Source: Chthoniobacterales bacterium (GTDB taxonomy: Bacteria; Verrucomicrobiota; Verrucomicrobiia; Chthoniobacterales; JACTMZ01). From it: 64,000 bases of DNA. The notes below the pieces were generated by a model that saw only the letters and a program-made list of their open reading frames with translations, was not told where the DNA came from and ran no database searches. A program made the position numbers and the translations under genes. Position 1 is the first letter of the stretch. Each line of letters starts with the position of its first letter. The stretch lies in the NCBI GenBank assembly GCA_044371145.1, contig JBILUI010000001.1:3497-67496 (forward strand), in the 5' to 3' direction. Below are positions 2,826 to 53,161 of the stretch, in pieces.

Positions 2826-2919
2826 GCTTAAAAGTCGAGGGTTGAGGGACGAGAGCCGGAGAAAATCGAAGACAGCCGCAGGCCATCGAGAGAAGAGGTA
2901 AACTCCCGGAAAACGCGCT

Positions 2920-3831: not shown

Positions 3832-3833
3832 CG

Positions 3834-3878
3834 GACCAAAAGAAAACGTCCGCTCCCCGCGAACGGGAAGCGGACGTT
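3834..3878 (-). terminator. Rho-independent terminator downstream of the RRM gene
   Basis: Perfect 10-bp arms AACGTCCGCT / AGCGGACGTT (3845..3854 and 3869..3878) with an inner CCCG/CGGG extension. On the transcribed (minus) strand they are followed by TTTTCTTTTGG (plus-strand 3834..3844). The element sits 20 nt after the RRM stop and abuts the miaA start. Confidence 0.7.
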
Positions 3879-3897
3879 GTGAAGATCCGACGGCACC

Positions 3898-21127: not shown

Positions 21128-22087
21128 TCAACTTCCCGCAGGCGTCTTGAGGATCGGCACTTTCTTCCAACTATCCGCCTCAGTGAATTCGCGTCCGGCG
21201 AAACACCAGACAATAACTTTTTTGGAGCCCAAATAGTCTTTGTCAGCCCGTGCGCGACGGGCGAGTTGCACGCGCGAACTCGTGGCGCCGGATCCCCGCA
21301 CGCCGAGGACATCGGGCATGGAGCCGAGCGCGGCGGCCACTTGGTCGGGCAATCCGGCACCAGTGGCGTGCATGTCCCCGCCTTGGTGAAAGACGAGCAC
21401 ATGACTGTCCCCCAACAGCAGCACCGGATTTTTCTTCATCGCTTCCGGATCGGCCGGCAGGCGTTGCCCGCGCAGTTCGATCTCCTCGGGGTCGCCGCCG
21501 AGGTCGCCATTGATTGTTTGCTTCGTCCACGCAGTTCCCGCACCGCTCGCTTCGTGGTCAGCCATCCCCGCTCCTTCCAGCAAGGGCAACAGTCGATCGA
21601 CCGCCAACGCAATGCCGTGACCCGACCAATGCGTGTCGCGGCGGCAAAAAGGCTCGTATGTTGCCGAGGAGTAATCCGGAAGCAGATCAACCACGGTGAC
21701 TTTGCGGTCGGTCAGTTCGCGCATGATGGATTCCCAACCGGCGCGCATCTTCTCCTGTTCCTCCGCGGTCACTCCGGCGGCCGCGCCGGCCAGCAAAACC
21801 TTCGGCGGCACCGGCATGACGAGAAGAGTCGCATCCGCCGCCTTCATTTGCTCCGCAAAGTCGGCGATGGCATCGAGAGCGGGTTTGGTCAGATTGGCAA
21901 GGTCCGGGACGGACAGTTTGGCTGCGAACTTCAGCTCGGCTGGCAGGAATCGCCATCCGTCCTCGCCTGCGACGAAGGATTCCTTCCGCGCATCCGCTTC
22001 CCCGGCTTTCTTCTCGAGAACCTCGGCACCGCAGACCGGGAGGACGAAAACCGCCAGAAAGACTAAGGTGAGGCGGGCGAGATCCAT
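21128..22087 (-). CDS. AlgJ/AlgX-like permuted-SGNH polysaccharide O-acetyltransferase, secreted
   Basis: Signal peptide MDLARLTLVFLAVFVLPVCGA. DTHW (Asp-x-His) precedes LLLGDSHV, which is the permuted triad order characteristic of AlgX/AlgJ. Confidence 0.7.
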   Translation of the reverse strand: MDLARLTLVFLAVFVLPVCGAEVLEKKAGEADARKESFVAGEDGWRFLPAELKFAAKLSVPDLANLTKPALDAIADFAEQMKAADATLLVMPVPPKVLLAGAAAGVTAEEQEKMRAGWESIMRELTDRKVTVVDLLPDYSSATYEPFCRRDTHWSGHGIALAVDRLLPLLEGAGMADHEASGAGTAWTKQTINGDLGGDPEEIELRGQRLPADPEAMKKNPVLLLGDSHVLVFHQGGDMHATGAGLPDQVAAALGSMPDVLGVRGSGATSSRVQLARRARADKDYLGSKKVIVWCFAGREFTEADSWKKVPILKTPAGS

Positions 22088-23703
22088 TCGGCAAAATTCG
22101 GTGTTTCCAGCATCAAATCGAGATCATCCAACTCCCCGCGGTTGAGCGGATCGAGTTGCGCGGCTTGTTCGTCATAGTTGACCAAACGCACGCGCGCGCG
22201 GGCACCGGGCTGCAGGTCTGCGGCAGGCAAGAGCTGGTTGTCACGCATGGTGAATACATAAGCCAGCGCGTCGCCGTCGAGATTCTTGCCGTCGGCATCC
22301 TGCAAATCCGACAAGTGCACCGCGGTGAGGTAATCGCGGTAGGGCGTGGTGCCGGGCTTCGGCACGCGACCGAGCGCCGCCACGGTGGCGATCACCTCGC
22401 GCGGTTCGCCGGGCGGGACAATCAGAAAACTTCCGGTTTTGCCGACGTCCGCACCCGCCAACTCCACCGGAGTCCAATCGCCGCGAACCACTTCGCGCAG
22501 GGACAATTGCCAGACGAGAACATCTTTGCCCTCCAGCCAGGCCGGATCTCTGGTTGCCTCTGCCGCGAGCATCCGGCGCGCTTCGAGCGCACCGGCATCG
22601 TTGCGCGAAAGGCGATCCACCGGCGCACCGAGCCGGTGCGAAACCCGCTCGGCCAGCCCGGCCTGCGTGCCCCACCCAAGATCTTCAGACGAGTAGATGT
22701 TCGTGTAGCTGTCGCCCAACAAAAGAATCGGCGAACCCCGGTCGGGAACCCAGTCTTTGACCGGCGCGGTCAGAACGCGCTGTTTTCGCAAAATCGGCGA
22801 CACATCCGGCAACTGCAACATGCGCGCCGTGTCGCCGACCGCATCGATCTCGTCGGTCGCGGCAGGCGCCCCGGAAGTCGCAGCGCTCCCAAGTTCGCCG
22901 GCGATGGCCGCCGCGACCAGTTCCATGCCGGCAGGCGACCAATGACTGTCGCTCGCGAGATACTGCGGTTGTCCGGAAGAGAGAGCCTGCTCCCGCAACG
23001 CCTTGGATGGATCGATGACTACCGGCGCAGGTTGCTCCGGCAAACCACGGGCCAATGCTTCCTCGCTCCATGCCGCCGCAAGCAAAGCCGCGAATTCATC
23101 CCAACCCGCAGGCATCATCGCGTCGGCGTTGGTGCCACGCGCAATTTGCTCGGGATGAATCGAAGCCTTGCCGGGTGTCGGGACAAAGACCAAGCGCACC
23201 CCTTTCATTGCCAGATCCGCGGCAAAAGCGGCCAGACCACGGGCTGCGGTCTCGATCCCGCCCGAGGGCTGCAGCAACGCGTCGATATCCGGTCGGTAGA
23301 AAAGCCATCCATCGCGTCCGACATAGGCTTCTTCGCTTCCGGCACCGCCGAAGCGCAGCAGATAGTCGAGAGTGGCCGGACGCACCGCTTCGACAAGCGC
23401 CGACGAATCTTCCAGCGAAGTCTCGAAGTTCCCCATGCCCTGCAGCGCGGCGCGGTTGGCGGCGATCAATCGCTGCGGCAGCGAGGATTCCCCCTGCCAA
23501 GCACGGACCACGCCCGCAAATCCGGAAACGGCGGATTGCCGGGGATCCCGCCACGCACCGAGCAAGCCGTCGGCCAAAGGAACAATCAATAGCCCGCAAG
23601 CAAAGGCCAGCGAGAGAAAGATGGCAACCGAGCGCGACACTTCGGTGCGGCCCCAGCCTTGGGCGTAGTTGTCGCGGACAGGCGGCATGGAAGGTTGTGT
23701 CAT
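22063..23703 (-). CDS. AlgX/AlgJ-like permuted-SGNH protein with N-terminal TM anchor and C-terminal extra domain
   Basis: TM segment VAIFLSLAFACGLLIVPL. SDSHW precedes LLLGDSYTNIY. A ~130-aa C-terminal beta-rich tail could be carbohydrate-binding, as in AlgX. Confidence 0.7.
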   Translation of the reverse strand: MTQPSMPPVRDNYAQGWGRTEVSRSVAIFLSLAFACGLLIVPLADGLLGAWRDPRQSAVSGFAGVVRAWQGESSLPQRLIAANRAALQGMGNFETSLEDSSALVEAVRPATLDYLLRFGGAGSEEAYVGRDGWLFYRPDIDALLQPSGGIETAARGLAAFAADLAMKGVRLVFVPTPGKASIHPEQIARGTNADAMMPAGWDEFAALLAAAWSEEALARGLPEQPAPVVIDPSKALREQALSSGQPQYLASDSHWSPAGMELVAAAIAGELGSAATSGAPAATDEIDAVGDTARMLQLPDVSPILRKQRVLTAPVKDWVPDRGSPILLLGDSYTNIYSSEDLGWGTQAGLAERVSHRLGAPVDRLSRNDAGALEARRMLAAEATRDPAWLEGKDVLVWQLSLREVVRGDWTPVELAGADVGKTGSFLIVPPGEPREVIATVAALGRVPKPGTTPYRDYLTAVHLSDLQDADGKNLDGDALAYVFTMRDNQLLPAADLQPGARARVRLVNYDEQAAQLDPLNRGELDDLDLMLETPNFAEWISPASP

Positions 23704-23790
23704 GAAGATCGGAACATTTCTGAACCACCTTGTGCGGGGCTTGTCCTTACCTTGACCGCCACCCGCATCGGCCTAATCTTCCCGCGCACG

Positions 23791-25863
23791 ATGAGAGTTC
23801 GCACGGGATGGATCCCGCCATTTTTTCGCGGACGGGGAGCTGTATTTTGGTGGCGCTTCTCCCTGACCATAGCCGCGGCTGCCTTCAGCCTGCTTCTTAT
23901 ACTGCAACCTCCTCCGTGGCAGGTGTTGACCGATGCGGCAGGTGAAGAGTTGTCGGTAGGTCGCATTGTCTTCATCGGCACTTGGTTGGGAGGCGCGGGA
24001 GGCATCGCGATCCTTGCGTTCCTTTTCACGGTGTGCCCGTGGTGGGCCTGCGCCCCCGACCCGGCGAACCGGATTGTGGCCGCACCGCGGGCGCCGGTGT
24101 GGTTCTGGCCGGTTGTTGCGGCGGCGGTCATCGCCGCCGGTTCGATCGCGACTCCTTCACTCGGGCACAGCCTGTGGGACGACGAGCACGAGTCCCTTGT
24201 CTGGTATATTCTCGGGCGCTACGTGCGGCAGGCACCGGAGGGAAATATCAAACTCAAGGAGCACAACTGGCGCCGGACGGTTTTCGCCTACTCAACGCCG
24301 AACAACCATGTCTTCCACAACATCCTCGCGCGTTGGTCCAACGCGACCTGGCGCGCGCTTGCAGCCCCGAAGGAAAGGCAATTCAGCGAAGTGGCCCTTC
24401 GCTTGCCGGCTTTTCTCGCCGGCTTGGCCTGCGTGGCGGCTCTCGCACTTCTGCTCAAAGATTTCGGTTTGCCGGGTTCCGGTGCCTTGGCTGCATGGTT
24501 TCTCGCCCTGCAGCCGTGGTTCACCCAGCACATGGCGCTCGCGCGCGGATATGCCTTGGTCATGTTGCTCACCGTGCTGGTGCTTGTTTTTTGGCGCCGC
24601 GCCCTTGTTTCGGGCGCTTGGCAATGGTGGGCGCTGCTCGCCGCTTGCCAGTTCTTCGCGCTGTGGACTTATCCCGCCGTTGTTTTCCTCCTCGCGCTCC
24701 TCAACCTCTCCTTGGTGGCGCTCATTTTGTTCCGGCCTTCGCCGGTGAACGCGCCGGCGCGGACCTTGCTCTCCCGTTGGTTCAGTTGCTCCTGTCTGGC
24801 CGGCGCAGGCTTGCTGCCGCTGGTGTTTCCGCTCGTTCCGCAGATGAAAGACTACATGGAATCGCTCGGCGGGGGCATGATGGCCCTGCCATGGCTGGCC
24901 AATCTCGGTTCGTTCCTCGTCGGTGGCGCGGCTTGGGATCGCTCGTCCGGCAACGGCACCAGTTACCTCGATATGCAGTTGGTGGCGCGATCCTGCGGAC
25001 CCGCCGTGCTGTATGTCCTCTACGGAGGAGCGGTGCTGGTTTTTGTCATGGGGCTTATCCGCTTTTTCCGGCGCGGCAAACTCGAGGCAACCGTGGCCGC
25101 GTGCGTCGTTCTCGGCCCCGCAATGCACTGGCTTTACGCCGAGACCAAGGGGGTAATCCTTTGGGAATGGTATCTCGTCTATGTCGTCCCGTCGCTTTGC
25201 CTTTTCTGGGGAGTCGGGACAGCCGCCGTGGGACAGAGTGTTGCGCGGTTCACCCGGTCGTCTTGGCCGGGAGTATTGGCCTCCGTGCTGATTGTCGCTT
25301 TCTATGCCTACGCCGCATCGCCGGTCCGCGCCTGGCATTCGGCACACTCGCGTGTGCCTTATCGTGAGTCGACTGTGGCCGCCCGTTCCGGAGTGGACGG
25401 CGCACGGACGATCGTGTTTTCCACGACGGGGGCACCGCTGGCTTACGATCCCGCGTTGTTCTACATCGAAGAGCCGCTCGACGTTGCGATCCTCATGTTC
25501 CAGGCGGATGTCCAGCAGCGGCCCCTCGTGGCCAACATGGGACAAATGCAGAATCTGCGTGACAGTTGTCCGGAGATCTTCGCGCTGCTCGAAAGCAAAA
25601 AGCTCTTTCCCGTGGTGGAACGCTTCCCCGGATTCATGAGCGGCGGCGACCGCTTTGTCTGCCGCTACGCAGCCGGGAGCGCTGCGGCTTTCGACTTCTC
25701 CGGCATCCTCGATACGGACGAAGTGGCCTACGCGAAAAGCAAGGCTGGCATCGCACCGGAAAAGTTTTTCGCCGGACGCGGCAAGAAACATATCGCGCAG
25801 GGAGCGGGCGGTTACGGTCCCAGCCCCGGTTCCGGAAAAGAGCCTCACGGCTTCAGAAAATAA
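23791..25863 (+). CDS. Uncharacterised GT-C-like polytopic membrane protein (paralogue of 62288..>64000)
   Basis: Many TM segments. Acidic loop motif SLWDDEHE after the first helices, then PNNHVFHNIL, and a ~170-aa soluble C-terminus. I chose the ATG at 23791 (MRVRTGWIPPFF) so that it does not overlap the divergent gene ending at 23703. The ORF-track start is 23659. Confidence 0.7.
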   Translation: MRVRTGWIPPFFRGRGAVFWWRFSLTIAAAAFSLLLILQPPPWQVLTDAAGEELSVGRIVFIGTWLGGAGGIAILAFLFTVCPWWACAPDPANRIVAAPRAPVWFWPVVAAAVIAAGSIATPSLGHSLWDDEHESLVWYILGRYVRQAPEGNIKLKEHNWRRTVFAYSTPNNHVFHNILARWSNATWRALAAPKERQFSEVALRLPAFLAGLACVAALALLLKDFGLPGSGALAAWFLALQPWFTQHMALARGYALVMLLTVLVLVFWRRALVSGAWQWWALLAACQFFALWTYPAVVFLLALLNLSLVALILFRPSPVNAPARTLLSRWFSCSCLAGAGLLPLVFPLVPQMKDYMESLGGGMMALPWLANLGSFLVGGAAWDRSSGNGTSYLDMQLVARSCGPAVLYVLYGGAVLVFVMGLIRFFRRGKLEATVAACVVLGPAMHWLYAETKGVILWEWYLVYVVPSLCLFWGVGTAAVGQSVARFTRSSWPGVLASVLIVAFYAYAASPVRAWHSAHSRVPYRESTVAARSGVDGARTIVFSTTGAPLAYDPALFYIEEPLDVAILMFQADVQQRPLVANMGQMQNLRDSCPEIFALLESKKLFPVVERFPGFMSGGDRFVCRYAAGSAAAFDFSGILDTDEVAYAKSKAGIAPEKFFAGRGKKHIAQGAGGYGPSPGSGKEPHGFRK

Positions 25864-27286
25864 AATAGATAAACGGGTTGAATTTCTGCACGCCGAGCAT
25901 GAGCGCGGCGGCCCAGAATATCGCCAGGGACCAAACTGCTTTCGGCGCGGTGAGCCGCTGCGTCAAGACCAAGGTGGTCGGCCCGAACCAAACCAACGCG
26001 GCGGCCGCGGCCATGGCGATGACGAAAAGCGGCTTCCAAACCAAGCCGGCCACGAGCCCGGACAACTCCCCGACCGGCAGCAGACAAAAGAGCCGTCCGT
26101 AGTATTGCAACGCGCCGGGCAAGTCCTCGGCACGGAAGAGAACCCAAAGCAGGGAAACGACGGTGAAAGTGAGCGCCGTCTGCAGAAACGCGGGCATGCC
26201 GGACCATATGCTCCTGCCGGGCAAAGCCCGCTCCGCGGCCAGAAGAAGTCCGTGCACGCTTCCCCAGATGACGAAATTCCACGAGGCGCCGTGCCACAAA
26301 CCGCCGAGGAACATGACGATGAAAAGATTGGCGTAGGTGCGGGGCAATCCGCGCCGGTTTCCGCCGAGCGGAATATAAAGGTAATCGCGCAACCAGGTGG
26401 ACAGCGAGATATGCCAACGCTGCCAGAAATCGGTGATACTTTTTGCGCGATACGGCGAATCGAAGTTGATCGGGAAGCGGAAGCCGAGCATTAGCCCGAG
26501 ACCGATGGCCATGTCAGAATAGCCGCTGAAGTCGAAATAGATTTGGAACGAGTAAGCGAACATCCCCAGCCACGATTCGAGCACACCCGCGTCGGTCGCC
26601 CCGAAAAGTGTGTCGGCAACTTTTCCGCACGGGTTGGCTATGAGGACTTTTTTACCGAGGCCGAGCGAGAAGCAGGCCACGCCGCGGGCAAACGCCTCCC
26701 AGCTGCGATCCGGACGGCGCAGTTGCCGCGCCACGGTCTGGAACCGCACGATCGGTCCCGCAACCAGTTGCGGGAACATGGAGACATAAGCAGCGAAGCC
26801 GGCAAAGTTGCGCAGGGCACGCGCCTCGCCCCGGTAAATGTCGATGGTGTAGCTCGTCGACTGGAACGTGTAGAAGCTGATGCCCAGCGGCAGTGTGACC
26901 TCCAGAAAAAAATCCGGTTGGGCCCAGCCGATGTGCCCGGTCAACGCGCGGTAATTCTCCGCCGCGAAGTTGAAATACTTGAAGAACCCGAGGAGCGAAA
27001 GATTGGCAACGACGGATGTCCACAACGCGGCTTTCTCCGTGAAGGTGCGCTGCTCGATCAGGTTGCGCACGCGCCGGTTGCCCTCGCGCAGGAGGACCAG
27101 ACCGCAGATGTAGTCGATCACCGTCGACACCATCATGAGCAACATGAAGGCCGGATTCGCCCATCCGTAAAAAAGATAACTGAAGACCGCCAGCACCCCG
27201 AGCCACATGCGGCGCGGGGAGAGCAAGCTCACTGCCAGCGCGAGCGGCAGAAAATAAAAAAGAAACAGATGCGAACTGAAGACCAT
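25853..27286 (-). CDS. MBOAT family O-acyltransferase (AlgI/DltB-like), copy 1
   Basis: FSGYSDMAIG, FWQRWHISLSTWLRDYLYIPLGGNR, GLWHGASWNF and C-terminal FIYFIF. Its stop overlaps the convergent GT-C gene by 11 nt. Confidence 0.92.
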   Translation of the reverse strand: MVFSSHLFLFYFLPLALAVSLLSPRRMWLGVLAVFSYLFYGWANPAFMLLMMVSTVIDYICGLVLLREGNRRVRNLIEQRTFTEKAALWTSVVANLSLLGFFKYFNFAAENYRALTGHIGWAQPDFFLEVTLPLGISFYTFQSTSYTIDIYRGEARALRNFAGFAAYVSMFPQLVAGPIVRFQTVARQLRRPDRSWEAFARGVACFSLGLGKKVLIANPCGKVADTLFGATDAGVLESWLGMFAYSFQIYFDFSGYSDMAIGLGLMLGFRFPINFDSPYRAKSITDFWQRWHISLSTWLRDYLYIPLGGNRRGLPRTYANLFIVMFLGGLWHGASWNFVIWGSVHGLLLAAERALPGRSIWSGMPAFLQTALTFTVVSLLWVLFRAEDLPGALQYYGRLFCLLPVGELSGLVAGLVWKPLFVIAMAAAAALVWFGPTTLVLTQRLTAPKAVWSLAIFWAAALMLGVQKFNPFIYFIF

Positions 27287-30460: not shown

Positions 30461-31273
30461 ATGAAGGATCTAGTGCCCTTGCCGCTGCGACAATTTTTCG
30501 GCAGTGTATGCACCGATTGGAAGGCGCGGCGGCAGAAAGAACGCCTGCTGGCGGCGCTGCGGGGTGATGCGGTGCAGTGCAATGTGTGCGGGTGGCAGGG
30601 CGCTCGGTTTGCCGATGACCGGTGGCATAGGGAAACAGTCTGTCCGGTGTGCCGCCTGCAGGTGCGCCATCGCATGCTGGCGGCGCTGCTCGACGGCCTG
30701 GCTGATATCGATAAGACCGACGAATCTTCGCTGCTGGGAGGAAAGGACGTGCTGCATTTCGCGCCGGAGAGACAACTGAGTGAGAGATTCAGAAAAACAG
30801 CGCGCAAACATGTCACGGCGGACTTCGACCGCAGCGACTGCGACTTGCGGGTGAACATGAGTTGCATGCCGGAGGTCGCGGACGCTTCTTTCGACACTGT
30901 CATTGCCTGCGACGTGCTCGAGCATGTTCCGGACGACATCGCCGCCATGCGCGAATTGCGCCGTATTCTGCGAAGCGATGGCTTAGCCCTAGTCACGGTT
31001 CCGCAAAAAGACTCGCCGTCCGAGACTGACGAGGATTCTTCCGTCACGGATGAAGCACAGCGGATTGCGCGCTTCGGCCAGAAGGATCATGTGCGTATGT
31101 ATGGCGATGATTTTGCGGAGCGTCTCGAGTCAGCCGGATTCAGGGTGCGGGTGATCTCGGCGTCCACTTTTTCGAGCGCGCAAGTTGAGCGTCATGTGCT
31201 GAAACCGCCTTGGCCCAACCCCCACCCTTTGGCCACCAACCAGCGCCGTATCTATCTCGCGCTGGCCGTTTAG
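30461..31273 (+). CDS. SAM-dependent methyltransferase (type 11-like) with N-terminal CxxC..CxxC zinc ribbon
   Basis: CNVCGW...CPVCR, then VLHFAPE and ACDVLEHVPDDIAAMRELRRILRSDGLALVTVP. I chose the ATG at 30461 (MKDLVPLPL). The ORF-track start 30263 lies inside the divergent GT2. Confidence 0.8.
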   Translation: MKDLVPLPLRQFFGSVCTDWKARRQKERLLAALRGDAVQCNVCGWQGARFADDRWHRETVCPVCRLQVRHRMLAALLDGLADIDKTDESSLLGGKDVLHFAPERQLSERFRKTARKHVTADFDRSDCDLRVNMSCMPEVADASFDTVIACDVLEHVPDDIAAMRELRRILRSDGLALVTVPQKDSPSETDEDSSVTDEAQRIARFGQKDHVRMYGDDFAERLESAGFRVRVISASTFSSAQVERHVLKPPWPNPHPLATNQRRIYLALAV

Positions 31274-32412
31274 TTCTCCGCCGGATGAACATCCCGCAAA
31301 CAACGGGCGAAAATTTCAGTGAATTTGACTGCTCCCGCGGCGGTCGGATGGACAGCGTCGAACCATAGCTCCCCGGACATCAGCCCCTCCATGTCTTCCG
31401 CCGAAGGCACATACCATACCGGGCTTTGCGGATCATTGAGGGCGAGGGCAAAGTCCTCGGCGTAATGCGCGCGTTCCGGCTCGAGCACCGGCAACGCGAA
31501 AAACCCGACTTCATCGGCGTAGGGCAGCATGACTTCGTTGATATCGTCGATGGACCTCGACCACTGCTCGTAAGGCATCGAAGCGTCGGCCACCCGCTCG
31601 CTGCGCGGCGGTGAATTTTTCCACACCTCCACCGTCCGCGCGTAATCAAAGCCGGTCTCGGGTCGCTCCAGCGCGAGAAAAGTGCGATCGATGCGTTTCC
31701 TCTCGCCGGGCCATTTCATGTCGGAGAAAGAACCCACAGCGAACTGGTTGAGCAAGGCGTGATGGGCGAGCAGCGCCGCGACGGACCAACGTGGCAATTG
31801 CGGCTCGGAAGCCAACTGGGCTTCGTATGCTTTCCATCCGCGACAGGCATTGGCCGGATTGAGAAACTGGATGTATCGTTCGGTGAAAGCCTCTTTTTCG
31901 AAGCGGTAGAGCGGATGGCGGTCGTAAGCGTCGAAAATCTCGTGCAGCAGGGTGACTTTGGCGGAGGCGAGTTTCGCCCGCCCCTCTTCCCCGAGCAGCC
32001 GGAGGAAGGTCTCGAGCGCGTAGCGGCGTTCGAGATGTGTCTGGCCAATCATGGCGAACGAAATCACTGTCGCCGGCGTGCCGCGCTCGGCGAGAAGCTT
32101 CTCCAGCATCTCGTGGTCGAGGCCGAAATTCGTCGCACTGCTGCCGAGCAAGATGAAAACCGGACGACTTTCCCATCCGGGGTCCTTGGCCAAATGTCGC
32201 ACCGCCCAGCGGGCGCGCTGCGCCACGGGTGAATTCGGCCAGAACAATTCATCCGGCAAAAAACTGCGCGCGGCGGCGAGGCCGGCGAAGGCGCAAAACA
32301 CGGCCAACCCGAAACCGAGAAGCGACGGGGCGCTTCGCCCCCACGCGACCAGCGAGAGAAGCACGAGGACCGCTACCGGAACAAGGACGGCGCTGCCGGG
32401 ATCCGAAGTCAA
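31270..32412 (-). CDS. TM-anchored SGNH/DltD-like putative acyl-transfer partner of MBOAT copy 2
   Basis: N-terminal TM helices, block-I-like ILLGSSATNFG, and C-terminal WFDAVHPT (DxxH). TTG start forms a TTGA overlap with the MBOAT stop (32409..32412). Confidence 0.6.
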   Translation of the reverse strand: MTSDPGSAVLVPVAVLVLLSLVAWGRSAPSLLGFGLAVFCAFAGLAAARSFLPDELFWPNSPVAQRARWAVRHLAKDPGWESRPVFILLGSSATNFGLDHEMLEKLLAERGTPATVISFAMIGQTHLERRYALETFLRLLGEEGRAKLASAKVTLLHEIFDAYDRHPLYRFEKEAFTERYIQFLNPANACRGWKAYEAQLASEPQLPRWSVAALLAHHALLNQFAVGSFSDMKWPGERKRIDRTFLALERPETGFDYARTVEVWKNSPPRSERVADASMPYEQWSRSIDDINEVMLPYADEVGFFALPVLEPERAHYAEDFALALNDPQSPVWYVPSAEDMEGLMSGELWFDAVHPTAAGAVKFTEIFARCLRDVHPAEN

Positions 32413-33818
32413 AATTGAAAGTAGATGAAAGGCGCGTAGCCGATGTGCATGAAGAGCAGACCGACAACCAACGACAACGCGATCACCGCGTAGACGCCGG
32501 CGGTCGATCGGACGCGGAAGCGTTCAACAAACTTCGTCGATCCGACAAGAAAGGTGTCGGCCACCAGCGGCAGCAAAAGGAGGAGCCAAGGAAACGGCTG
32601 GGAAATTTCCCAAGCTGTGCCCAGCACCGAGGCCAGCTTTTCCCAAACAATCAGGGTGACTTGCCATGAATCCGCGCGGAAGGGAACCCAGCAGAGAAAG
32701 ACAAAGAGCTGCGTGAGCAGGAACGAAGCGGCGAGAAAAATACGGTTGCCCGCCAAGCGTGCGGCGGCATTTCCGGATGCCCAGGCGTGATTGATGCAAA
32801 GTGCCAGTCCGTGCGCCGCGCCCCAAAGGACAAAATTCCAATTAGCTCCGTGCCACAGTCCACCGAGAAACATGGTGACCATGAGATTGCGATACATACT
32901 CAACCGCGGCCCACGGTTTCCGCCCAGCGGGATGTAGACGTAGTCGCGCAACCACGTTGAGAGCGAAATGTGCCAACGGTGCCAGAAACCGATAAGTGAC
33001 GTTGCCCGGTAGGGGTGGTTGAAGTTGTCCGGCAGGTAGTAGCCGAGCATGTTGGCTACCCCGATCGCCATGAGCGAGTAACCCGCGAAATCGAAGTAAA
33101 TCTGCCCGTAAAAACCGAGCGTCGCACCGAAGACGGAGAGCGGAGAATGCGCAGCCGGATCGGCGTAAACCGCATCGACATAACCCGCGATGTTGTCGGC
33201 AAAGACGCTTTTGTAGAGGAAACCAATGGCAAATTTGCGCCAACCGTCGATGAACATGGAGGCGTCGAAGACGCGCGCGCTGGCCAACTGCGGAAGGAAA
33301 GTCTTCGCGTGGATGATCGGACCCGCCACAAGATGCGGGAAGAAACCCAGATAAACACCCAATTTGAGGAAGCTGCGCTCCACCGGAATTGTTCCGCGGT
33401 AGACGCTGACCAGATAGCTGATCGCTTGGAATATGTAGAAACTGACGCCGACCGGCAGGATGATGTTCAGCGTCGTCCAAGTGAGCTCCCCGCCGAAATG
33501 TTCCACCCCGCGCTGCACGCTGCTGATGAAAAAGTTGGCGTATTTGAAATACCCCAGAACGAGCAACTGTACGCCGCAGGCCGTCCAGAGAATGACTTCG
33601 GCACGCCCGCCGGCAGCCGCCGCCAGTGCCCGCCCGCCGGCGAAGGCCACGACGATAACAAACAGCAGCAGCGCGGTGAACCGCCAGTCCCACCATCCGT
33701 AAAAAAAGAAATTCGCCGCAAAAAGAAACGGCAACCTCCAACGATCGCTGCGCAGCAGCCAGTAAAGCGGCAGCACGACCGCCATGAACACGATAAAAAC
33801 CAGTGTGGTAAAAATCAT
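32409..33818 (-). CDS. MBOAT family O-acyltransferase, copy 2
   Basis: FAGYSLMAIG, FWHRWHISLSTWLRDYVYIPLGGNR, GLWHGANWNF and C-terminal FIYFQF. Confidence 0.92.
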   Translation of the reverse strand: MIFTTLVFIVFMAVVLPLYWLLRSDRWRLPFLFAANFFFYGWWDWRFTALLLFVIVVAFAGGRALAAAAGGRAEVILWTACGVQLLVLGYFKYANFFISSVQRGVEHFGGELTWTTLNIILPVGVSFYIFQAISYLVSVYRGTIPVERSFLKLGVYLGFFPHLVAGPIIHAKTFLPQLASARVFDASMFIDGWRKFAIGFLYKSVFADNIAGYVDAVYADPAAHSPLSVFGATLGFYGQIYFDFAGYSLMAIGVANMLGYYLPDNFNHPYRATSLIGFWHRWHISLSTWLRDYVYIPLGGNRGPRLSMYRNLMVTMFLGGLWHGANWNFVLWGAAHGLALCINHAWASGNAAARLAGNRIFLAASFLLTQLFVFLCWVPFRADSWQVTLIVWEKLASVLGTAWEISQPFPWLLLLLPLVADTFLVGSTKFVERFRVRSTAGVYAVIALSLVVGLLFMHIGYAPFIYFQF

Positions 33819-41045: not shown

Positions 41046-42196
41046 TATTCTTTTTCCACCAGCAACTCGCGCGGCGAAAGCTCCGGATCGAGCGCCAGGG
41101 CCAGCGTTTTTTCCAACATCGCCGTGTCGATTTCGATGTCGAAATCGCGCGAGGCGTTCTCACCGAAAAGATGGTAGTGGCGCACGCCGCACAATGAAGC
41201 AACGCGATGGGCGGCATGGTCCCAGACCCTGGGGTTGAACGCCTCGATCAGGGCGCAACCCGAAGGGGCAAACAGCACGTTCATCGTCCCTGCGCCATGC
41301 ACACCGAAAATGGCTTCGGCATTCGAGAACAGCGCGACCTGAGCGGCAAAGTCCATCTCCTCGGTGAAGACTTCCTTGAAGCCGAAAGAAGCCAGGATCC
41401 TGTGCACCTCTTCGCTATTGATGATTTTACGCCTCGTGCGCTGCCGCGAGATATAGATTCGGCGCGGGCCTGATGGCGGGCCGGCGGCCTCGCGTAAGCG
41501 ATCGCGCACCCGGAGCAGAGGACGCGGGTCGGGCACGCCGCTCTTGCCGCAGGAGACAAAGCGGAGCTCGCGGAATCGCACAAGTTCCGTTGCGGGCTTG
41601 AGGACATTCGCGAGGCCAAGCAGGGAAACGCATTCCTCTTGGAAACGCGGCGAGGGTTTGTCGAGGACAACGAGCGCGGGGTCTCCGGCGGATAACGCAT
41701 CGGCTTTAGGCAAAGCATCCATGAGCCAGTGCGCGTAATTGTTCCCCCAGACGGTGCTCAACTTGAAGGCCGGTTCCTCGATGACAGGCGCTTCCTCGAG
41801 ACGCGTCGCCGCATGGCCCTCGTAAAGTGAAGGCAACGCATGAGAGGAGAAAGCGAGCACTTCGCGATCGGCGGTGATGACGAATCCCGAGGGAACATGC
41901 AGCCAGGCATCGCGGAGCACGAACTCGAAAGAAGGTGCGACCGGATAGGTCTCTCCCGTGTAAAGCCTCGCGTATTTGACGACGTCCCAAGCCCGTCGTT
42001 TTTTGACGAAAAAAACGGGTGGTTTTTCGAGAACGGCTTCGAGCGTCTGCGGGACGGCGATGGAAGGTTGCCTGCGGAAAGTCACACCTGTTTCGCGCGC
42101 TACTCCTTTGCCTTTACTCGCCAACTCAGCTGCGTCACGGACCACAGGCCAAGAACGTGCCTGCCGGCCAAAGTGCCAACTTTTCCAGGTTTTCAC
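41042..42196 (-). CDS. GT61/DUF563 family glycosyltransferase, copy 2
   Basis: NYAHWLMDALPK and RIYISRQRTRRKIINSEEVHRILASFGFKEVFTEEMDFAAQVALFSNAEAIFGVHGAGTMNVLFAPSGCALIE. The GTG at 42196 forms a GTGA overlap with the sulfotransferase stop; the ORF-track TTG is at 42208. Confidence 0.75.
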   Translation of the reverse strand: MKTWKSWHFGRQARSWPVVRDAAELASKGKGVARETGVTFRRQPSIAVPQTLEAVLEKPPVFFVKKRRAWDVVKYARLYTGETYPVAPSFEFVLRDAWLHVPSGFVITADREVLAFSSHALPSLYEGHAATRLEEAPVIEEPAFKLSTVWGNNYAHWLMDALPKADALSAGDPALVVLDKPSPRFQEECVSLLGLANVLKPATELVRFRELRFVSCGKSGVPDPRPLLRVRDRLREAAGPPSGPRRIYISRQRTRRKIINSEEVHRILASFGFKEVFTEEMDFAAQVALFSNAEAIFGVHGAGTMNVLFAPSGCALIEAFNPRVWDHAAHRVASLCGVRHYHLFGENASRDFDIEIDTAMLEKTLALALDPELSPRELLVEKEY

Positions 42197-42972
42197 GGAA
42201 GGTCCCAATCCTCTTTGCCCAGCCCGTAGCGCTGCGCCTGCTCCTCCAGAAAGATCTCATCTTCCTTGGTGAAATATTTTTTCCACTCCCCGGCGACGCC
42301 TTTTCGCGGCAGCACGGAAATGGCGTCATGTAAGCCCACCGCTTTCTGCCGCCAACGCGGCAGTGCTCCGGTCGATCGGCAGATGTCCCGCACCACGCGG
42401 CGAAAATCGCTCTTTATTTGCTCAAAACGGATCACGCAGATGTCTGGAACGGAAAGCCAACCGGAGACATGCGAGGCCCAACGGGCTGCCACGCTATCGA
42501 AACTTGCTGCGTCGGAAAAACCGTGCTTGAGGTAGTCGGTCAAAGGACGTCGCAAAAATTCCGCGAAGCTTTCGCAGCGCTGACTCTCGAGACCGGGATT
42601 GGTGCGATGGAGTTCGTCGCTGTTGAGGTAGTGGAAGAACGATACCAAGGTGTCTCGAGGATCACGCCAAACGTAAACCACCGGAGCCGCCGGATACCAC
42701 TCGCGGAAGAGATGAGCATCGGCGTGCGTCTTGACCAAACCTCCGCCATTCTTCCATAGGGGCCACTCGCGGCGGAAATCCTCGAGGTGCCGATGGCGAC
42801 TCTCAGGCCGGTCGTAGGGACCGAGCCAATCGCCGACGTAGCGCAAGTGCGGCCGGACGTAGGCGTTGGCAAAAATCGTATTGATCATGAAGTGCGTCCC
42901 GGATCTTTCGTGCGACACGACATAGAACGGTGTCTTCTTGCAGAGGATCCCGAAGATCAGCCGGTCGATCAT
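42193..42972 (-). CDS. PAPS-dependent sulfotransferase (Sulfotransfer_1/3-like)
   Basis: 5-prime-PSB loop YVVSHERSGTHF and 3-prime-PB motif VYVWRDPRDTLVSFFHY. I chose the ATG at 42972 (MIDRLIFGIL). The ORF-track start 43239 runs into the upstream GT2. Confidence 0.85.
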   Translation of the reverse strand: MIDRLIFGILCKKTPFYVVSHERSGTHFMINTIFANAYVRPHLRYVGDWLGPYDRPESRHRHLEDFRREWPLWKNGGGLVKTHADAHLFREWYPAAPVVYVWRDPRDTLVSFFHYLNSDELHRTNPGLESQRCESFAEFLRRPLTDYLKHGFSDAASFDSVAARWASHVSGWLSVPDICVIRFEQIKSDFRRVVRDICRSTGALPRWRQKAVGLHDAISVLPRKGVAGEWKKYFTKEDEIFLEEQAQRYGLGKEDWDLP

Positions 42973-43001
42973 GGATAACGCAGCTTTTTTTCCGCCGGCG
43001 C

Positions 43002-44120
43002 CTACCTCTTGCCGAAAGTGTCCATTCCCTTGCGGTAGAGAAAGACGCGCAAGTCGCGCAGGCCGCGACTCAAAGCGGAATTCAAGCGTTCGACGAAGGA
43101 CATCTGGTGGCGCGCGATCTTCTTTGCCTTGCGGTAAAGTGCCGCGTGGCCCGGCGAAGGGCAGGGAGCCGTGGAGAGTTCCAACTCTAAAAGTTTTCGC
43201 ATGCGCGACGGGGACCGCGGGACGCGATGCAACAGCCAATCTTCGATCGCATAGCGCTCCTTCAAGATTTGGTAGCGCGACGGCGACGTGAACTCTGCCG
43301 CCAAGTGCGCCGCGGCGCTACCCTTGCGGAGTCGATAACTAACCGTGCGTTCGGGGACATAGACCCGGCGACCGCCGCCTAAGGCGGAAGACATCAGCAC
43401 GACCTTGTCGGCGAAAGCCCGCACAAAAGGTCTCGCAGTTCGCGCAAACTCCTCCAGTTCGAGGCGTTTGGCGTGGTGGGCACGCAAAGAAAGAGTGGAG
43501 GTATTGTTGCCCAAGAAAAGATCGGGCAAGAAGTAAACCAAAGCCGTGCAGTATCCCCAATCATACGGTTTTTCCCAATCAATAGGGCCCAAAAGGCCCT
43601 TGAAGTCCATGGCCGATAAACTGCGCTTGAACGCGCCGATCAGATCACTGTCCCCGGTCATGGAGAAGCGGCAATAGATCAAATCAGCTTGGGGAAACTC
43701 ACTCCATCGGCGACGCATGGCCGCCAAATGACCGGGTTGGTAGCTGTCATCGCCATCGAGCAGTGTCACAATCTCCTGCCGCGAGGCCGATACGCCAGAC
43801 CCAATGGCCGCTGTTTGCCCGCGATTTTCGGTGTAGATGGTCTTTATGCAGGAGTGCCGGGCAGCCAATGCCCCGATGATTTCCCTCGAATTGTCGGTGC
43901 TCCCGTCATCGACGACGATGATTTCCTCCGGAGGTTCCGTCTGCGAGAGCACGCTTTCGATGCACTCGGCAATGTAACTTCCATTATTGTGGTTGTTGAT
44001 GAGAACTGCTATTGATGGATTGTGCACAGCGGTAATAGCCTTTCGGAACGGAATTTTGCTTTGGCAGACACGGAAAATAGAAAGAGCAGAGAAAACGCAG
44101 CACTGCTTGCGGTGCGACAT
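43002..44120 (-). CDS. Glycosyltransferase family 2
   Basis: IAVLINNHNNGSYI, IIVVDDGSTDNS and LLDGDDSY motifs. The C-terminal tail RVFLYRKGMDTFGKR is shared with the GT2 at 44304. Confidence 0.85.
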   Translation of the reverse strand: MSHRKQCCVFSALSIFRVCQSKIPFRKAITAVHNPSIAVLINNHNNGSYIAECIESVLSQTEPPEEIIVVDDGSTDNSREIIGALAARHSCIKTIYTENRGQTAAIGSGVSASRQEIVTLLDGDDSYQPGHLAAMRRRWSEFPQADLIYCRFSMTGDSDLIGAFKRSLSAMDFKGLLGPIDWEKPYDWGYCTALVYFLPDLFLGNNTSTLSLRAHHAKRLELEEFARTARPFVRAFADKVVLMSSALGGGRRVYVPERTVSYRLRKGSAAAHLAAEFTSPSRYQILKERYAIEDWLLHRVPRSPSRMRKLLELELSTAPCPSPGHAALYRKAKKIARHQMSFVERLNSALSRGLRDLRVFLYRKGMDTFGKR

Positions 44121-45500: not shown

Positions 45501-46175
45501 TCATCGGCGGTAATAGCCAAAGAGCCTCATGTCGGAATCGTAGAGTCTCTCGATTCTGCCACGCGACAGGTCATCCAGGCCGCTGCGCCCGTCTTCCGGC
45601 AGCGAGGAATTCTGCCTGGGGATAAAATCGACTTTGAGGTCGAGCATGGACAGCATGCGCTCCAAATCCGATTCGAACGACTCCATGCGTCCGAGAAGAT
45701 CGATGTTCCCCAAGTCGACAAGCCGGGCCTGGCGGCGCAGATGGACATCGCAGCGATCGAGATCGAGGCCCTCGGCAAACGCGATGAATTCGCCGAGCTC
45801 TTTCATCCTTGCGTGATCGGAACTGCCGAATCCGAAATGGTTGCGCTCGAGCACGCGATCGCGCCAGCAGGACAAGAAGCGCTCGACGGGATCGCGGACG
45901 AAAGCGAACTTGAAATGATTCCGAACGGCTGCAGGGCGGTAATGCTGGAAGATACCGTTCTCCAGTTCGAAAACCGCACCGGCTTTTCGCAGGACGTCAA
46001 AGATCGTTCTCGTCCCGACTTTGGCCACGCGAAACCAGACGAACTTCGGTTCTCTTCCTATGGTCAGGTTGTAGCGCTGCTGGGAAGGGTAGAAACCCTG
46101 GAGAACCGCTCTCCTTGCGATGGCCTGGAAAGCGTCGTTGCGCCAACCGGGACGCGTTTCAGGAAGGTCGTGCAT
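45501..46175 (-). CDS. Sulfotransferase family 2 (carbohydrate sulfotransferase-like)
   Basis: WFRVAKVGTRTIFDVL (PAPS 5-prime-phosphosulfate loop), FAFVRDPVERFLSCW, DVHLRRQ and LGRMESFESDL, in the order typical of the Sulfotransfer_2 family. Confidence 0.8.
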   Translation of the reverse strand: MHDLPETRPGWRNDAFQAIARRAVLQGFYPSQQRYNLTIGREPKFVWFRVAKVGTRTIFDVLRKAGAVFELENGIFQHYRPAAVRNHFKFAFVRDPVERFLSCWRDRVLERNHFGFGSSDHARMKELGEFIAFAEGLDLDRCDVHLRRQARLVDLGNIDLLGRMESFESDLERMLSMLDLKVDFIPRQNSSLPEDGRSGLDDLSRGRIERLYDSDMRLFGYYRR

Positions 46176-46848
46176 GGTTCAAGCGGGACAGGAACCGCGT
46201 CGTGACTTTGCGCAAGAAATGCCTGAGGCCCCAGACATGCCCGACGCCGCGCACCAGGTAAGGCGGCGCAGGAATGGGATCGAGACCGTTGCGTAAAGCC
46301 CACGCATTGTAGGCACGGAAATTTGCCTGGTAGTAAGGATCCGCGTCTTGCGTTGCCGCAGAGGATTTGGCGTGGGAGCGGTGGTCAATATAGCCGGTGA
46401 GGTTTTCGTAATTGCCCGCTTTTTCCATCGCCCTGGAAATCCACCAGTCTACGTACGAGGCACCAATGTGTAACTTGGGGATATCTTTGGAAAGATAATC
46501 ATCCCATATCCGCAAAGGGATATAATACATATCGATACCGTGTACAAAACGTCCGCTCGGAACCTCCCGGCGGCGGAATCCGTAAACGCGGTCCGGATCG
46601 GGCACATCGAATGGGTCGCGCGTGAGTTCGACATCGGAGTTGCACCACACCAAAGCGCGGGCGGAGGTCTCACGGCGGGCTCGGTCAATGACATCACCCA
46701 AGAGGACGAGCCGACGGCCGGCCGGAAATCGGACAGGCGTTAACCCGAGACCAACAATGCTTTTATCCAGGCGTTCTTGCGCCGAATGGAGTCGCGCGTT
46801 GTCGGAGTCGGTGAGCCAGACAAATGTGACGACTCTGTTCTCCTTCAA
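46159..46848 (-). CDS. Hypothetical protein (no family recognised)
   Basis: 229-aa ORF. TTG start forms a TTGA overlap with the upstream stop (46845..46848). Lower-GC block. Confidence 0.45.
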   Translation of the reverse strand: MKENRVVTFVWLTDSDNARLHSAQERLDKSIVGLGLTPVRFPAGRRLVLLGDVIDRARRETSARALVWCNSDVELTRDPFDVPDPDRVYGFRRREVPSGRFVHGIDMYYIPLRIWDDYLSKDIPKLHIGASYVDWWISRAMEKAGNYENLTGYIDHRSHAKSSAATQDADPYYQANFRAYNAWALRNGLDPIPAPPYLVRGVGHVWGLRHFLRKVTTRFLSRLNHARPS

Positions 46849-47870
46849 GGCTTTGTGTCTTTCGTTGCCGATCCCGCAGCCATTGTTCCCTCGCCCCGCA
46901 ATTCAGGGACGGCTTTCTCGAGGGAATTCAGATAAATCGCCGATGAGCGGCTGTCCATATGCATGCCATCGGTCCAAGTCAGGCTCTCCTGGTCAACAGG
47001 CACTTGCAAGGCTGCGAAGGCTGCGGACGGCAGCCTCTGCCGGACGATTCGGAGAATGGCTTGGACGTAGGGGTGCCCGGCAAGATCCGGTGCAACCGGA
47101 AGAAAAACGAATCGTACCTTGGTGCCACGCTCCTCCAATTTACTCGCCAGACTTAACGCGCGGGAAAAATTGTCTTCGGCCCGCACTAAGACACTTTCGT
47201 CGGCCGCCAGCTTGTCGAAGAGAGCTTGTGTTTTTAGCTTAAGAGTCCCGTTTCGTTCTGCAGTTGCCGGCAGGTCGTCTGCCTCTTGTCGCTCACCGGC
47301 AACACGTTGTGCACGCTTCAGCATAAACTGCGCATCGGGATGGACACCGAAGCTGCTGGCAAACACCGTGCGGATGGGTTTCAGATCGCGAAGGACCATT
47401 CGTAGACGGTCAAAAGTTGGAGGCAATTCGCCATAGGCTCTTACAAGTTCCGTGTTGAGTTCTCTCTCCAGAAGATTGATTTCGGCCAGCACGAGTCGAG
47501 GGCGGCGATTTGACTGCGCCACGATTTCCAGACCGGTGAGAAAACTGCCTCCGGGCAAAGCAAGGTTGGAAACTTCAGACCACCGGAAAAGCTCATCCCT
47601 CATCTTGTTGCTGAGGGAGCTTCCCACGATCACAACATCGACGTGGTCTCGTGACAAAAACCGCTGCACTTTCTGGTGCTGCAAATCCCCCGGCGAAGTC
47701 GCCGGCTTCCGCACCGACCGCCAGCTATCGAAGCTCAGCACATAGAGGGAGAGCAGGATCGCGAATGCGACGACGAAGATTGCCCACCAGCGGGCCGGGC
47801 GCGCCGTCCGCTCCGGACGCACAAGATTGGTTTCATCGAAAAACGAATGAGGCGGCATACGTCGCTGCAA
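46845..47870 (-). CDS. TM-anchored SGNH/DltD-like putative acyl-transfer partner of MBOAT copy 3
   Basis: TM helix WWAIFVVAFAILLSLYVL, block-I-like VVIVGSSLSN, and C-terminal WTDGMHMD (DxxH). It starts 8 nt after the MBOAT stop and has the same layout as 31270..32412. Confidence 0.55.
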   Translation of the reverse strand: MQRRMPPHSFFDETNLVRPERTARPARWWAIFVVAFAILLSLYVLSFDSWRSVRKPATSPGDLQHQKVQRFLSRDHVDVVIVGSSLSNKMRDELFRWSEVSNLALPGGSFLTGLEIVAQSNRRPRLVLAEINLLERELNTELVRAYGELPPTFDRLRMVLRDLKPIRTVFASSFGVHPDAQFMLKRAQRVAGERQEADDLPATAERNGTLKLKTQALFDKLAADESVLVRAEDNFSRALSLASKLEERGTKVRFVFLPVAPDLAGHPYVQAILRIVRQRLPSAAFAALQVPVDQESLTWTDGMHMDSRSSAIYLNSLEKAVPELRGEGTMAAGSATKDTKP

Positions 47871-47878
47871 ACCTGATT

Positions 47879-49273
47879 TTAGAACTGAAAGTAAATAAAG
47901 GCTGTGTCAGGCCCACCTTCGATAAAGGAAAGCAGCAGAAGAACCGCATAGAGAACGGGCTCGTATTTGCGGAAGAGAGCAGTTCTTGCCAACGGTGCGC
48001 AGAGATGCTGAAGCACAACCGGCAACGCATACACAACCGCTAGGACGTAATAGTATGGACCGCGGAAAGCAGCCCAAGGATTCTCCAGCCAGCCCTGTAA
48101 ATAGGCGGTGCTTTCCGCCCATCCGTTGACCTTGAAAAGGAGCCAACCCAAGCTTACGAGGGCAAAAACAGCCGCAATCCGCAGAAAGCGCATGGGGAAG
48201 CTATGAAGCAGGCGTGCCACTCTGGGTATCGGGCCTAATAGGGTGCGAAAGGCTCTCTCGAAGCAAAGCAGGATTCCGTGATAAAGTCCCCAGACGAGAA
48301 AGTTGATGCTGCTCCCGTGCCACAAACCGCCAAGGCCCATCACGACAAGGAGATTGAAGTAGGTTCTCGATGAGCCCCGGCGACTCCCGCCCAGCGGTAT
48401 GTAGAGATAGTTCTTCAGCCAAGTTGACAGCGAAATGTGCCAGCGGTGCCAGAATTGGGCGAAGGATGCCGACAAGTAGGGCAGCCTGAAGTTCACGGGT
48501 AGCCGGTAGCCAAACAAGAGCGCCAACCCGATAGCCATGGCCGAGTAGCCAAAGAAGTCGGCGTAGATCTGGAAGCTAAAAAGACCCAACAAAAACAGAC
48601 GGTCAATGCCACCCAGAGTGCTTATGGAGTCGGCTGTCTCCATGTAAACAGTGAACTCGTTGAGGTTATTGGCACAAAAAGCCTTCATGAAAAAACCGAC
48701 CACAATCCATTTGGCGGCTGCGATGAAATCCACATCATCTATCCGCTTCGGCTCGATCTGCGGAAAGAAGCCGCGGGCGCGCGTGATGGGACCGCAAACC
48801 AGCTGTGGAAAAAAGAGAATATACAGCATGGTTTGTCCCGCGGACGGCGGAGAAACAGCCGTGCGATTCTTGGTGTAGTCGACAAGCAGGCTGATGTTGT
48901 GAAAAACGAAAAAAGAGATACCGATGGGCAATGGCAGCATGACAAAGTAGTCGAAGAAGAAAACTCCTGTTCCCGCGAAATTCAGAGGATCGACGAAAAG
49001 AAATTTGTATTTGAAAAAAGCCAACAGCGATAAGTTGGCGACCACACCGGCAATCATCCACGGAACACCGGACTTCATCGCGCCCCACAGACACGCCTGG
49101 GTGGCCAGCAGCGCGGTCAGCAAAAGAGGCAAAAATCTGGCATCGGCCCAGGCAAAGAAGAACATGCTGGCCATGATCAGCAGCGGCACCTGCATGTTTC
49201 GGAAGACAGGAGCATAATAAAGCGCGAAGACCGCAACCACGAACACGGCGAATTGCCACGAGAGAAAATTCAT
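47879..49273 (-). CDS. MBOAT family O-acyltransferase, copy 3
   Basis: FFGYSAMAIG, FWHRWHISLSTWLKNYLYIPLGGSR, GLWHGSSINF and C-terminal FIYFQF. Lower GC than copies 1 and 2. Confidence 0.92.
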   Translation of the reverse strand: MNFLSWQFAVFVVAVFALYYAPVFRNMQVPLLIMASMFFFAWADARFLPLLLTALLATQACLWGAMKSGVPWMIAGVVANLSLLAFFKYKFLFVDPLNFAGTGVFFFDYFVMLPLPIGISFFVFHNISLLVDYTKNRTAVSPPSAGQTMLYILFFPQLVCGPITRARGFFPQIEPKRIDDVDFIAAAKWIVVGFFMKAFCANNLNEFTVYMETADSISTLGGIDRLFLLGLFSFQIYADFFGYSAMAIGLALLFGYRLPVNFRLPYLSASFAQFWHRWHISLSTWLKNYLYIPLGGSRRGSSRTYFNLLVVMGLGGLWHGSSINFLVWGLYHGILLCFERAFRTLLGPIPRVARLLHSFPMRFLRIAAVFALVSLGWLLFKVNGWAESTAYLQGWLENPWAAFRGPYYYVLAVVYALPVVLQHLCAPLARTALFRKYEPVLYAVLLLLSFIEGGPDTAFIYFQF

Positions 49274-53119: not shown

Positions 53120-53161
53120 AATAAGCTGATTACTGCGCCATGGTTGTGTGGTGCCGCCTCA

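Follow-up and report, generated by a model that had tools for sequence, protein, structure and literature searches.

What is the role of two hypothetical proteins that are each encoded directly behind an MBOAT gene in the same glycan cluster? This question is raised by a 64,000-nucleotide stretch of a Chthoniobacterales bacterium (GenBank assembly GCA_044371145.1, contig JBILUI010000001.1, positions 3,497 to 67,496), here called the window, in which the gene of MBOAT-A is followed by that of partner 1 and the gene of MBOAT-B by that of partner 2. By analogy with characterised systems, we hold it probable, at odds of roughly three to one, that each pair is a two-component periplasmic/transmembrane MBOAT–SGNH O-acyltransferase, most likely an O-acetyltransferase, acting on the glycan of the surrounding cluster. 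An earlier note on this DNA, made from the letters alone, had proposed a periplasmic O-acylation module of this kind, like DltB/DltD or PatA/PatB, and the predicted folds, the residue order, the shuttle motif and the conserved pairing described below support it. The mechanism is already known in kind; the class of partner is unclassified and fairly widespread.

MBOAT–partner gene pairs

Both pairs lie on the minus strand. MBOAT-A (32409..33818; 469 residues; PF03062, E = 2e-23) precedes partner 1 (31270..32412; 380 residues), a predicted membrane-anchored DltD-like SGNH-fold protein of an unnamed family. MBOAT-B (47879..49273; 464 residues; PF03062, E = 1.8e-29) precedes partner 2 (46845..47870; 341 residues from a TTG start), a predicted SGNH-fold protein with a single transmembrane (TM) helix, whose unnamed family is common in Bradyrhizobium. 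The first junction is a 4-nucleotide TTGA overlap (...caa ttt tga over ttg act), while at the second the taa of MBOAT-B is followed by 8 nucleotides and then the TTG. Open reading frames (ORFs), overlap and gap are all as in the earlier note, which had placed MBOAT copies 2 and 3 directly 5′ of partners of ~340–380 residues. Public gene callers start partner 2 four codons later, at the ATG at 47858, which yields 337 residues and a gap of 20 nucleotides. In public records, both partners are hypothetical proteins, and MBOAT-A is labelled ‘DltB (MBOAT superfamily)’ or ‘AlgI’.

Both MBOATs terminate in FIYFQF (32412..32429 in MBOAT-A, 47882..47899 in MBOAT-B, minus strand) and thereby carry the FXYXXF acyl-shuttle motif at their C-terminus. 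The fused form of this motif marks acyl-CoA-using MBOATs that supply an SGNH partner with the acyl group and work without DltC or DltX (PMC12148441). Thus, both proteins fall into the acyl-CoA-using AlgI/PatA type rather than the DltB type, and with a fused shuttle motif of their own they need no DltX. The conserved MBOAT histidine, His283 in MBOAT-A, lies in the RWHIS segment (32964..32978, minus strand); FWHRWHISLSTWLR is present in all three MBOATs of the window, and the FWHRWHISLSTWL segment with the conserved histidine in both MBOAT-A and MBOAT-B. According to the MBOAT literature (PMC12148441), the histidine of the RWHIS segment is presumably the catalytic one.

The pairing recurs far beyond the window. 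For this count, an MBOAT ORF had to lie on the same strand upstream of the partner in genome or metagenome loci, and MBOATs were recognised with a hidden Markov model (HMM) built from the three window MBOATs. In the partner-2 family, an MBOAT lies upstream in 76 of 77 informative loci and within 150 nucleotides in 73; of the other four, two have the MBOAT at a distance of 173–342 nucleotides, the assembly of one (L082) is frameshifted, and one (L009) has none. All ten informative loci of the partner-1 family have the MBOAT upstream, eight of them within 150 nucleotides and two further away. This co-occurrence, proposed beforehand as a check, is found in unrelated contexts, and since the flanking genes vary among loci, the MBOAT–partner pair itself is the conserved unit. 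Moreover, the shuttle motif travels with it: an F[IL]YFQF terminus ends 10/10 MBOATs 5′ of partner-1 relatives and 69/75 MBOATs 5′ of partner-2 relatives.

Individual loci show further arrangements. The frameshifted contig L082, a metagenome-assembled genome (MAG), was considered as an MBOAT–partner fusion, which we reject on account of the frameshift. One MAG contig has two copies of the partner-2 family (L009 and L081), with an MBOAT at L081 only. At L098, an unrelated 404-residue ATPase-like gene (2766..3980) stands between an MBOAT ending in FLYFQF and a gene of the partner-1 family, apparently inserted there secondarily. In Bradyrhizobium sp. AZCC 1719 (L003, 4622..6876), the pair is found among oxidoreductase, sugar-phosphate isomerase-like, cytochrome P450 and efflux genes. 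In a metagenome contig (L002, 2987..4849), a convergent AT3–SGNH fusion (PF01757 and PF19040) adjoins a partner-2-family pair, so that both major acylation systems are adjacent there. Within the window, a 229-residue ORF (46159..46848, minus strand) without a Pfam match opens with a second TTGA overlap on the stop codon of partner 2 and is kept 3′ of partner 2 in all near-identical contigs (L100–L103). It could be a third component of the module or merely the next glycan gene.

Conserved residues, predicted fold and topology of the partners

The earlier note could not name the family of the partners, and no Pfam or NCBIfam family fits either of them: scans of both proteins that reached down to E ≤ 1 assign neither to any family. 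Matches of partner 1 to DinB_2 and MDMPI_N (E = 0.005–0.04) are below the cutoff, lie within its helical insert and were dismissed. Partner 1 has 10 close relatives at ≥52% identity, and a HMMER profile search retrieves 193 cluster representatives at E ≤ 1e-3, 98 of them at E ≤ 1e-10 and nearly all 340–400 residues long; a profile scan of species-representative genomes found no relative of partner 1. For partner 2, a first search gave two relatives and a profile search 46, and the genome scan matched 126 species-representative genomes, mostly of Bradyrhizobium, with others from Gemmatimonas, Chthoniobacteraceae and Afipia.

Conservation was counted over 92 diverse partner-1 relatives, with a mean column identity of 25%, and 41 partner-2 relatives. 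In the partner-1 family, G90, S92, E158, G227 and H355 are invariant, Y163 and D164 are nearly so, and D352, W350 and P308 are kept in ≥90%. In the partner-2 family, G83, S85, T112, G113, E130, N132, P258 and H304 are invariant, G107, G108 and S109 nearly invariant, and S84, D301 and D306 kept in ≥90%. These residues include those of the motifs quoted in the earlier note, namely VFILLGSSATNFG and WFDAVH in partner 1 and VVIVGSSLSN and WTDGMHMD in partner 2, all of which are present. The conserved serine is the second one of G-S-S in both families, and some partner-1 relatives have G-G-S instead. Conservation across both families argues that neither the GSS nor the DxxH motif is there by chance.

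On this basis, the residues can be assigned to SGNH blocks (all on the minus strand). Block I of partner 1 (G90-S91-S92; 32137..32145) marks the end of strand 85–89 and the start of helix 92–97, with S92 as the predicted nucleophile; in partner 2, G83-S84-S85 (47616..47624) has S85 in this role. Block II (ALPGGSFLTG) and block III (LVLAE130-I-N132) of partner 2 are assigned by conservation (47475..47561). The block III position of partner 1 follows from strand 3 and its invariant E158 (VTLLHEIFDAYD; 31921..31956), a stretch that hhalign pairs with E130 of partner 2. Block V is formed by W350-F-D352-A-V-H355 in partner 1 (31348..31365) and by W-T-D301-G-M-H304-M-D306 in partner 2 (46953..46976), each with the invariant histidine. 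By conservation and by the models, the order is therefore Ser, Gly, Glu/Asn, Asp-x-x-His, which is the standard SGNH order, unlike that of AlgX, as previously proposed.

AlphaFold2 models both partners with a common order of elements (partner 1: pLDDT 91.8, pTM 0.90; partner 2: pLDDT 81.6, pTM 0.75). The membrane helix or helices lead into strand 1, G-S-S at the start of a helix, strand 2, the Gly block and strand 3, which ends in the invariant glutamate (with Asn132 next in partner 2). An all-helical insertion of 100–140 residues follows, then strand 4 and L-P, and Asp-x-x-His is placed just ahead of the final helix. In Foldseek searches against the PDB, ranks 1–12 of partner 1 are all DltD (7dxm, 3bma, 6o93, 6pfx; E = 7e-5 to 2e-3, probability ~1). 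The top 18 matches of partner 2 are all SGNH/GDSL enzymes with a probability of up to 0.99, among them PAF (platelet-activating factor) acetylhydrolase, a carbohydrate acetylesterase and thioesterase I, with DltD at rank 13; PatB takes ranks 21 and 32 in the two match lists. PDB sequence searches with four profiles give sub-significant matches only. Among the sub-significant HMMER matches, the G-S-S of partner 1 aligns with the GDS of TesA (4jgg) and its block V with D-R-V-H of 8a2n, and block V of partner 2 aligns with D-G-I-H of 9otv. The earlier note had named the lack of an SGNH/flavodoxin-like fold as grounds for giving up its reading; the predicted folds of both partners are SGNH/DltD-like.

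The membrane anchor differs between the two. Partner 2 is predicted to have a single TM helix (residues 28–47; 47730..47789, minus strand), as seen in the model; one TM helix behind a positively charged tail is found in partner 2 and in 39/41 relatives. For this protein, the N-terminal TM anchor described in the earlier note stands. In partner 1, it gives way to a predicted two-helix hydrophobic hairpin (residues 5–48; 32269..32400, minus strand) with model helices at 7–18 and 31–50. At least two uncharged N-terminal runs occur in 81/92 partner-1 relatives, and the loop between them is rich in lysine and arginine (2.64 K+R versus 0.16 in the N-tail). From this charge distribution and the positive-inside rule, the catalytic domains of both partners probably face outward, on the side of the membrane where the shuttle tyrosine sits.

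How are the two partners related? As previously noted, they are too diverged to be aligned confidently by eye and yet share one layout: BLASTP detects no similarity between them, while their models have the same element order. With deep alignments, hhalign relates the partner-1 and partner-2 families at 80.6% probability (E = 1.3e-5; 4.8% with shallow alignments) over a stretch that begins at the TM helix, takes in the G-S-S and Gly blocks and ends at the conserved glutamate. Further, the partner-1 HMM matches one protein of the partner-2 family at E = 1.2e-7. Taken with the lack of BLASTP similarity, this points to distant branches of one superfamily rather than a recent duplication, which is also rejected because MBOAT-A and MBOAT-B share 39% identity (35–39% among the window MBOATs). 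At the level of sequence, the two modules are thus best described as old paralogues.

Fusions were also encountered among the relatives. One protein of 1027 residues (P0098) combines heparinase II/III N- and C-terminal domains, whose fold is that of a polysaccharide lyase, with a C-terminal domain that resembles partner 1 (residues 730–1014), which hints at an action of the partner-1 family on acidic polysaccharides. Long matches of the partner-1 family were inspected for fusion to an MBOAT, and none was found.

Proposed acyl transfer, alternatives and the glycan cluster

By analogy with PatA/PatB and DltB/DltX/DltD, transfer may proceed in three steps. The MBOAT would take an acyl group from cytoplasmic acyl-CoA and, via the histidine of RWHIS, load it onto the tyrosine of its own FIYFQF at the outer face of the membrane. 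The partner, kept close to the MBOAT through the TM hairpin of partner 1 or the single TM helix of partner 2, would then receive the acyl group on the block I serine (S92 or S85), aided by D352/H355 or D301/H304. Finally, the partner would pass the acyl group to a hydroxyl of the glycan once the glycan or a lipid-linked precursor is periplasmic. What the analysis itself establishes is the gene structure, the conservation of the motifs, the predicted folds and the recurrent pairing; we infer the donor, the acceptor, the transferase rather than esterase activity and the physical complex of both proteins from these analogies.

Several results weigh against such a two-component acyltransferase. 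No sequence method links either partner family significantly to a named SGNH family, the global TM-scores of partner 1 against DltD in Foldseek are ~0.35 at a root-mean-square deviation of 12–14 Å, and the best PDB E-value of partner 2 is 0.036. Partner 1 is without the block III asparagine. The block II glycine is kept in both partners and replaced in the characterised transferases PatB and OatA, so that this marker does not support a preference for a transferase over a hydrolase. In Bradyrhizobium, moreover, the pair lies outside any glycan cluster, so that the acceptor need not be a glycan. The hydrolase-typical glycine in particular would suit partners that are SGNH esterases removing acyl groups, like the de-O-acylase Ape1 beside PatA/PatB; SGNH enzymes are mostly hydrolases, and the best PDB matches of partner 2 are esterases and lipases. 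We nevertheless regard an esterase as unlikely, since each MBOAT has one partner and no second SGNH gene adjoining, the genes are translationally coupled and their pairing is near-obligate across genomes. A shuttle-motif MBOAT requires an acceptor enzyme, and the membrane anchoring and DltD-like predicted structure suit a transferase docked on the MBOAT. The missing asparagine and the failure of any named SGNH family to match by sequence would also fit partners whose SGNH fold is degenerate and which, without catalysing anything, serve the MBOAT as membrane adaptors or as scaffolds that bind the substrate. This is very improbable: serine and histidine are invariant and the aspartate is kept in ≥90%, even where columns average no more than 25% identity, a pattern typical of a live active site.

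Could the pairs instead be true DltB/DltD orthologues, with which a Gram-negative organism would carry out D-alanylation, a carrier protein being the aminoacyl donor? In favour of this, the structural search ranks DltD first for partner 1, TIGR04091, the model of DltB, picks up the MBOATs, and DltB is their name in some records. However, the TIGR04091 scores of the MBOATs, 159 (MBOAT-A) and 136 bits, are far under the 375-bit cutoff. PF04914 (DltD) matches neither of the partners nor any of the 92 partner-1 relatives, and hhalign gives <1% probability for both partner families against a DltD profile of two sequences, one DltD that matches solved DltDs at E = 4e-64 to 2e-47 and the DltD of E. 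faecium. Each MBOAT carries the shuttle motif in fused form, a feature tied in the literature to acyl-CoA donors without DltX and DltC. Additionally, no AMP-binding (DltA-type) enzyme was matched among the 50 window ORFs scanned, a set in which ORFs of DltC or DltX size were not systematically covered. Orthology to the Dlt proteins is therefore scarcely credible. A further reading, on which both families form a third architectural class of MBOAT partner, DltD-like in structure, working on acyl-CoA-type MBOATs and having an acceptor or acyl group outside the known repertoire, strikes us as doubtful though conceivable. Candidates would then be a non-acetyl acyl group on a sulfated, methylated glycan here and a non-polysaccharide envelope molecule in Bradyrhizobium.

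For the O-acyltransferase that we favour, the acceptor is suggested by the surroundings. A single glycan cluster extends from about 5.6 to 59 kb of the window, almost wholly on the minus strand. It comprises >15 glycosyltransferases (GT1/4, GT2, GT9, GT61, GT47-like), several methyltransferases, sulfotransferase-type proteins, two DegT aminotransferases, a hexapeptide acyltransferase, an ABC-transporter ATPase, an AT3 acyltransferase (PF01757; 19148..20218, minus strand) and a third MBOAT with AlgX-family proteins. The immediate neighbours of the pairs are methyltransferases, GT2 enzymes and a sulfotransferase. This gene content makes a heavily decorated polysaccharide the likely acceptor. Two sulfotransferase-type proteins, two FkbM-type methyltransferases, the ABC-transporter ATPase and a FabH-like ketoacyl synthase (KAS) III (42193..43239, 45501..46175, 52205..53884, 53881..55101 and 58215..59261) suggest that the glycan is sulfated, methylated and perhaps N-acylated, and that its export is ABC-dependent. 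With three MBOATs and one AT3, the cluster has four membrane acyltransferases, which implies several distinct acyl decorations; the two modules, the third MBOAT/AlgX set and the AT3 probably decorate different positions or sugars.

The region 21128..23703 had been described in the earlier note as being of AlgX/AlgJ type. PF16822 indeed matches both of its ORFs (21128..22087 and 22063..23703), but the region contains no MBOAT–partner copy; the first MBOAT is found at 25853..27286 (minus strand) and ends in FIYFIF. A plus-strand ORF of 734 residues (23659..25863) with a weak PMT_2/GT-C match lies between the AlgX ORFs and this MBOAT, an interval in which the AT skew also changes sign.

Comparison with known MBOAT–SGNH systems

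MBOAT–SGNH pairs set the acylation of bacterial surface polymers and thereby affect phage, immune and antimicrobial interactions. Such systems are recognised in genomes with the help of a catalogue of partner types (PatB, AlgJ/AlgX/WssI, PatB1, DltD). Pfam and NCBIfam miss both of our partner families, each of which is almost always tied to a shuttle-motif MBOAT. The partner-2 family occurs in at least 126 species-level genomes, mostly of Bradyrhizobium, and the partner-1 family has ~190 cluster representatives from metagenomes. If both were named, annotation pipelines could read many pairs of ‘AlgI/DltB plus hypothetical protein’ as complete acyltransferases. Since Bradyrhizobium is amenable to genetics, its pair would lend itself to a search for the acceptor.

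PatA/PatB, the mechanistic paradigm used here, has an MBOAT ending in FXYXXF and a TM-anchored SGNH partner with canonical block order. In contrast to our partners, PatB belongs to an ordinary GDSL-type SGNH family with the block II glycine replaced, whereas partners 1 and 2 have the helical insert of 100–140 residues and escape the GDSL models of Pfam: neither matches Lipase_GDSL_2 or other GDSL/SGNH families, and 4/92 partner-1 relatives do so weakly (best E = 0.0018). The alginate and cellulose O-acetylation systems AlgI/AlgJ/AlgX and WssH/WssI resemble the pairs in that an exopolysaccharide cluster contains an MBOAT of the AlgI type to which the shuttle motif is fused. AlgJ, AlgX and WssI, however, are circularly permuted (H-S-G-N) members of PF16822, while both partners are canonical and without a match to this family, unlike the AlgX-family ORFs of the window. 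PatA1/PatB1 (DHHW), which O-acetylates secondary cell wall polysaccharide in Bacilli, likewise joins an MBOAT to a partner of the SGNH superfamily and acts on a glycan other than peptidoglycan. PatB1 differs in its permuted order, its KDS and TDHHW motifs and its beta-sandwich cap; DUF1574 (PF07611) and DHHW (PF14286) match neither partner at E ≤ 1 and are absent from the 25/39 families listed for the 92 partner-1 relatives.

DltB/DltD, together with DltX, DltC and DltA, performs the D-alanylation of teichoic acids in Gram-positive bacteria. Like our pairs, it consists of an MBOAT and a separate, N-terminally anchored extracytoplasmic SGNH-fold enzyme of about 340–425 residues. DltD has the canonical order Ser, Gly, Gln/Glu, Asp-x-x-His (Ser74/Gly104/Gln133/Asp373/His376) with a long insertion ahead of block V. 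In the Dlt system, the shuttle motif is carried by the microprotein DltX, whereas here it is fused to the MBOAT; DltD has a single helix, in contrast to the TM hairpin of partner 1; and the pairs stand in a Gram-negative-type glycan cluster, not in a dlt operon. As judged from the models, what likeness to DltD there is probably lies in structure and architecture rather than in family membership. In their predicted structures, both partners would tie DltD, which has hitherto been regarded as peculiar to Gram-positive bacteria, to Gram-negative systems.

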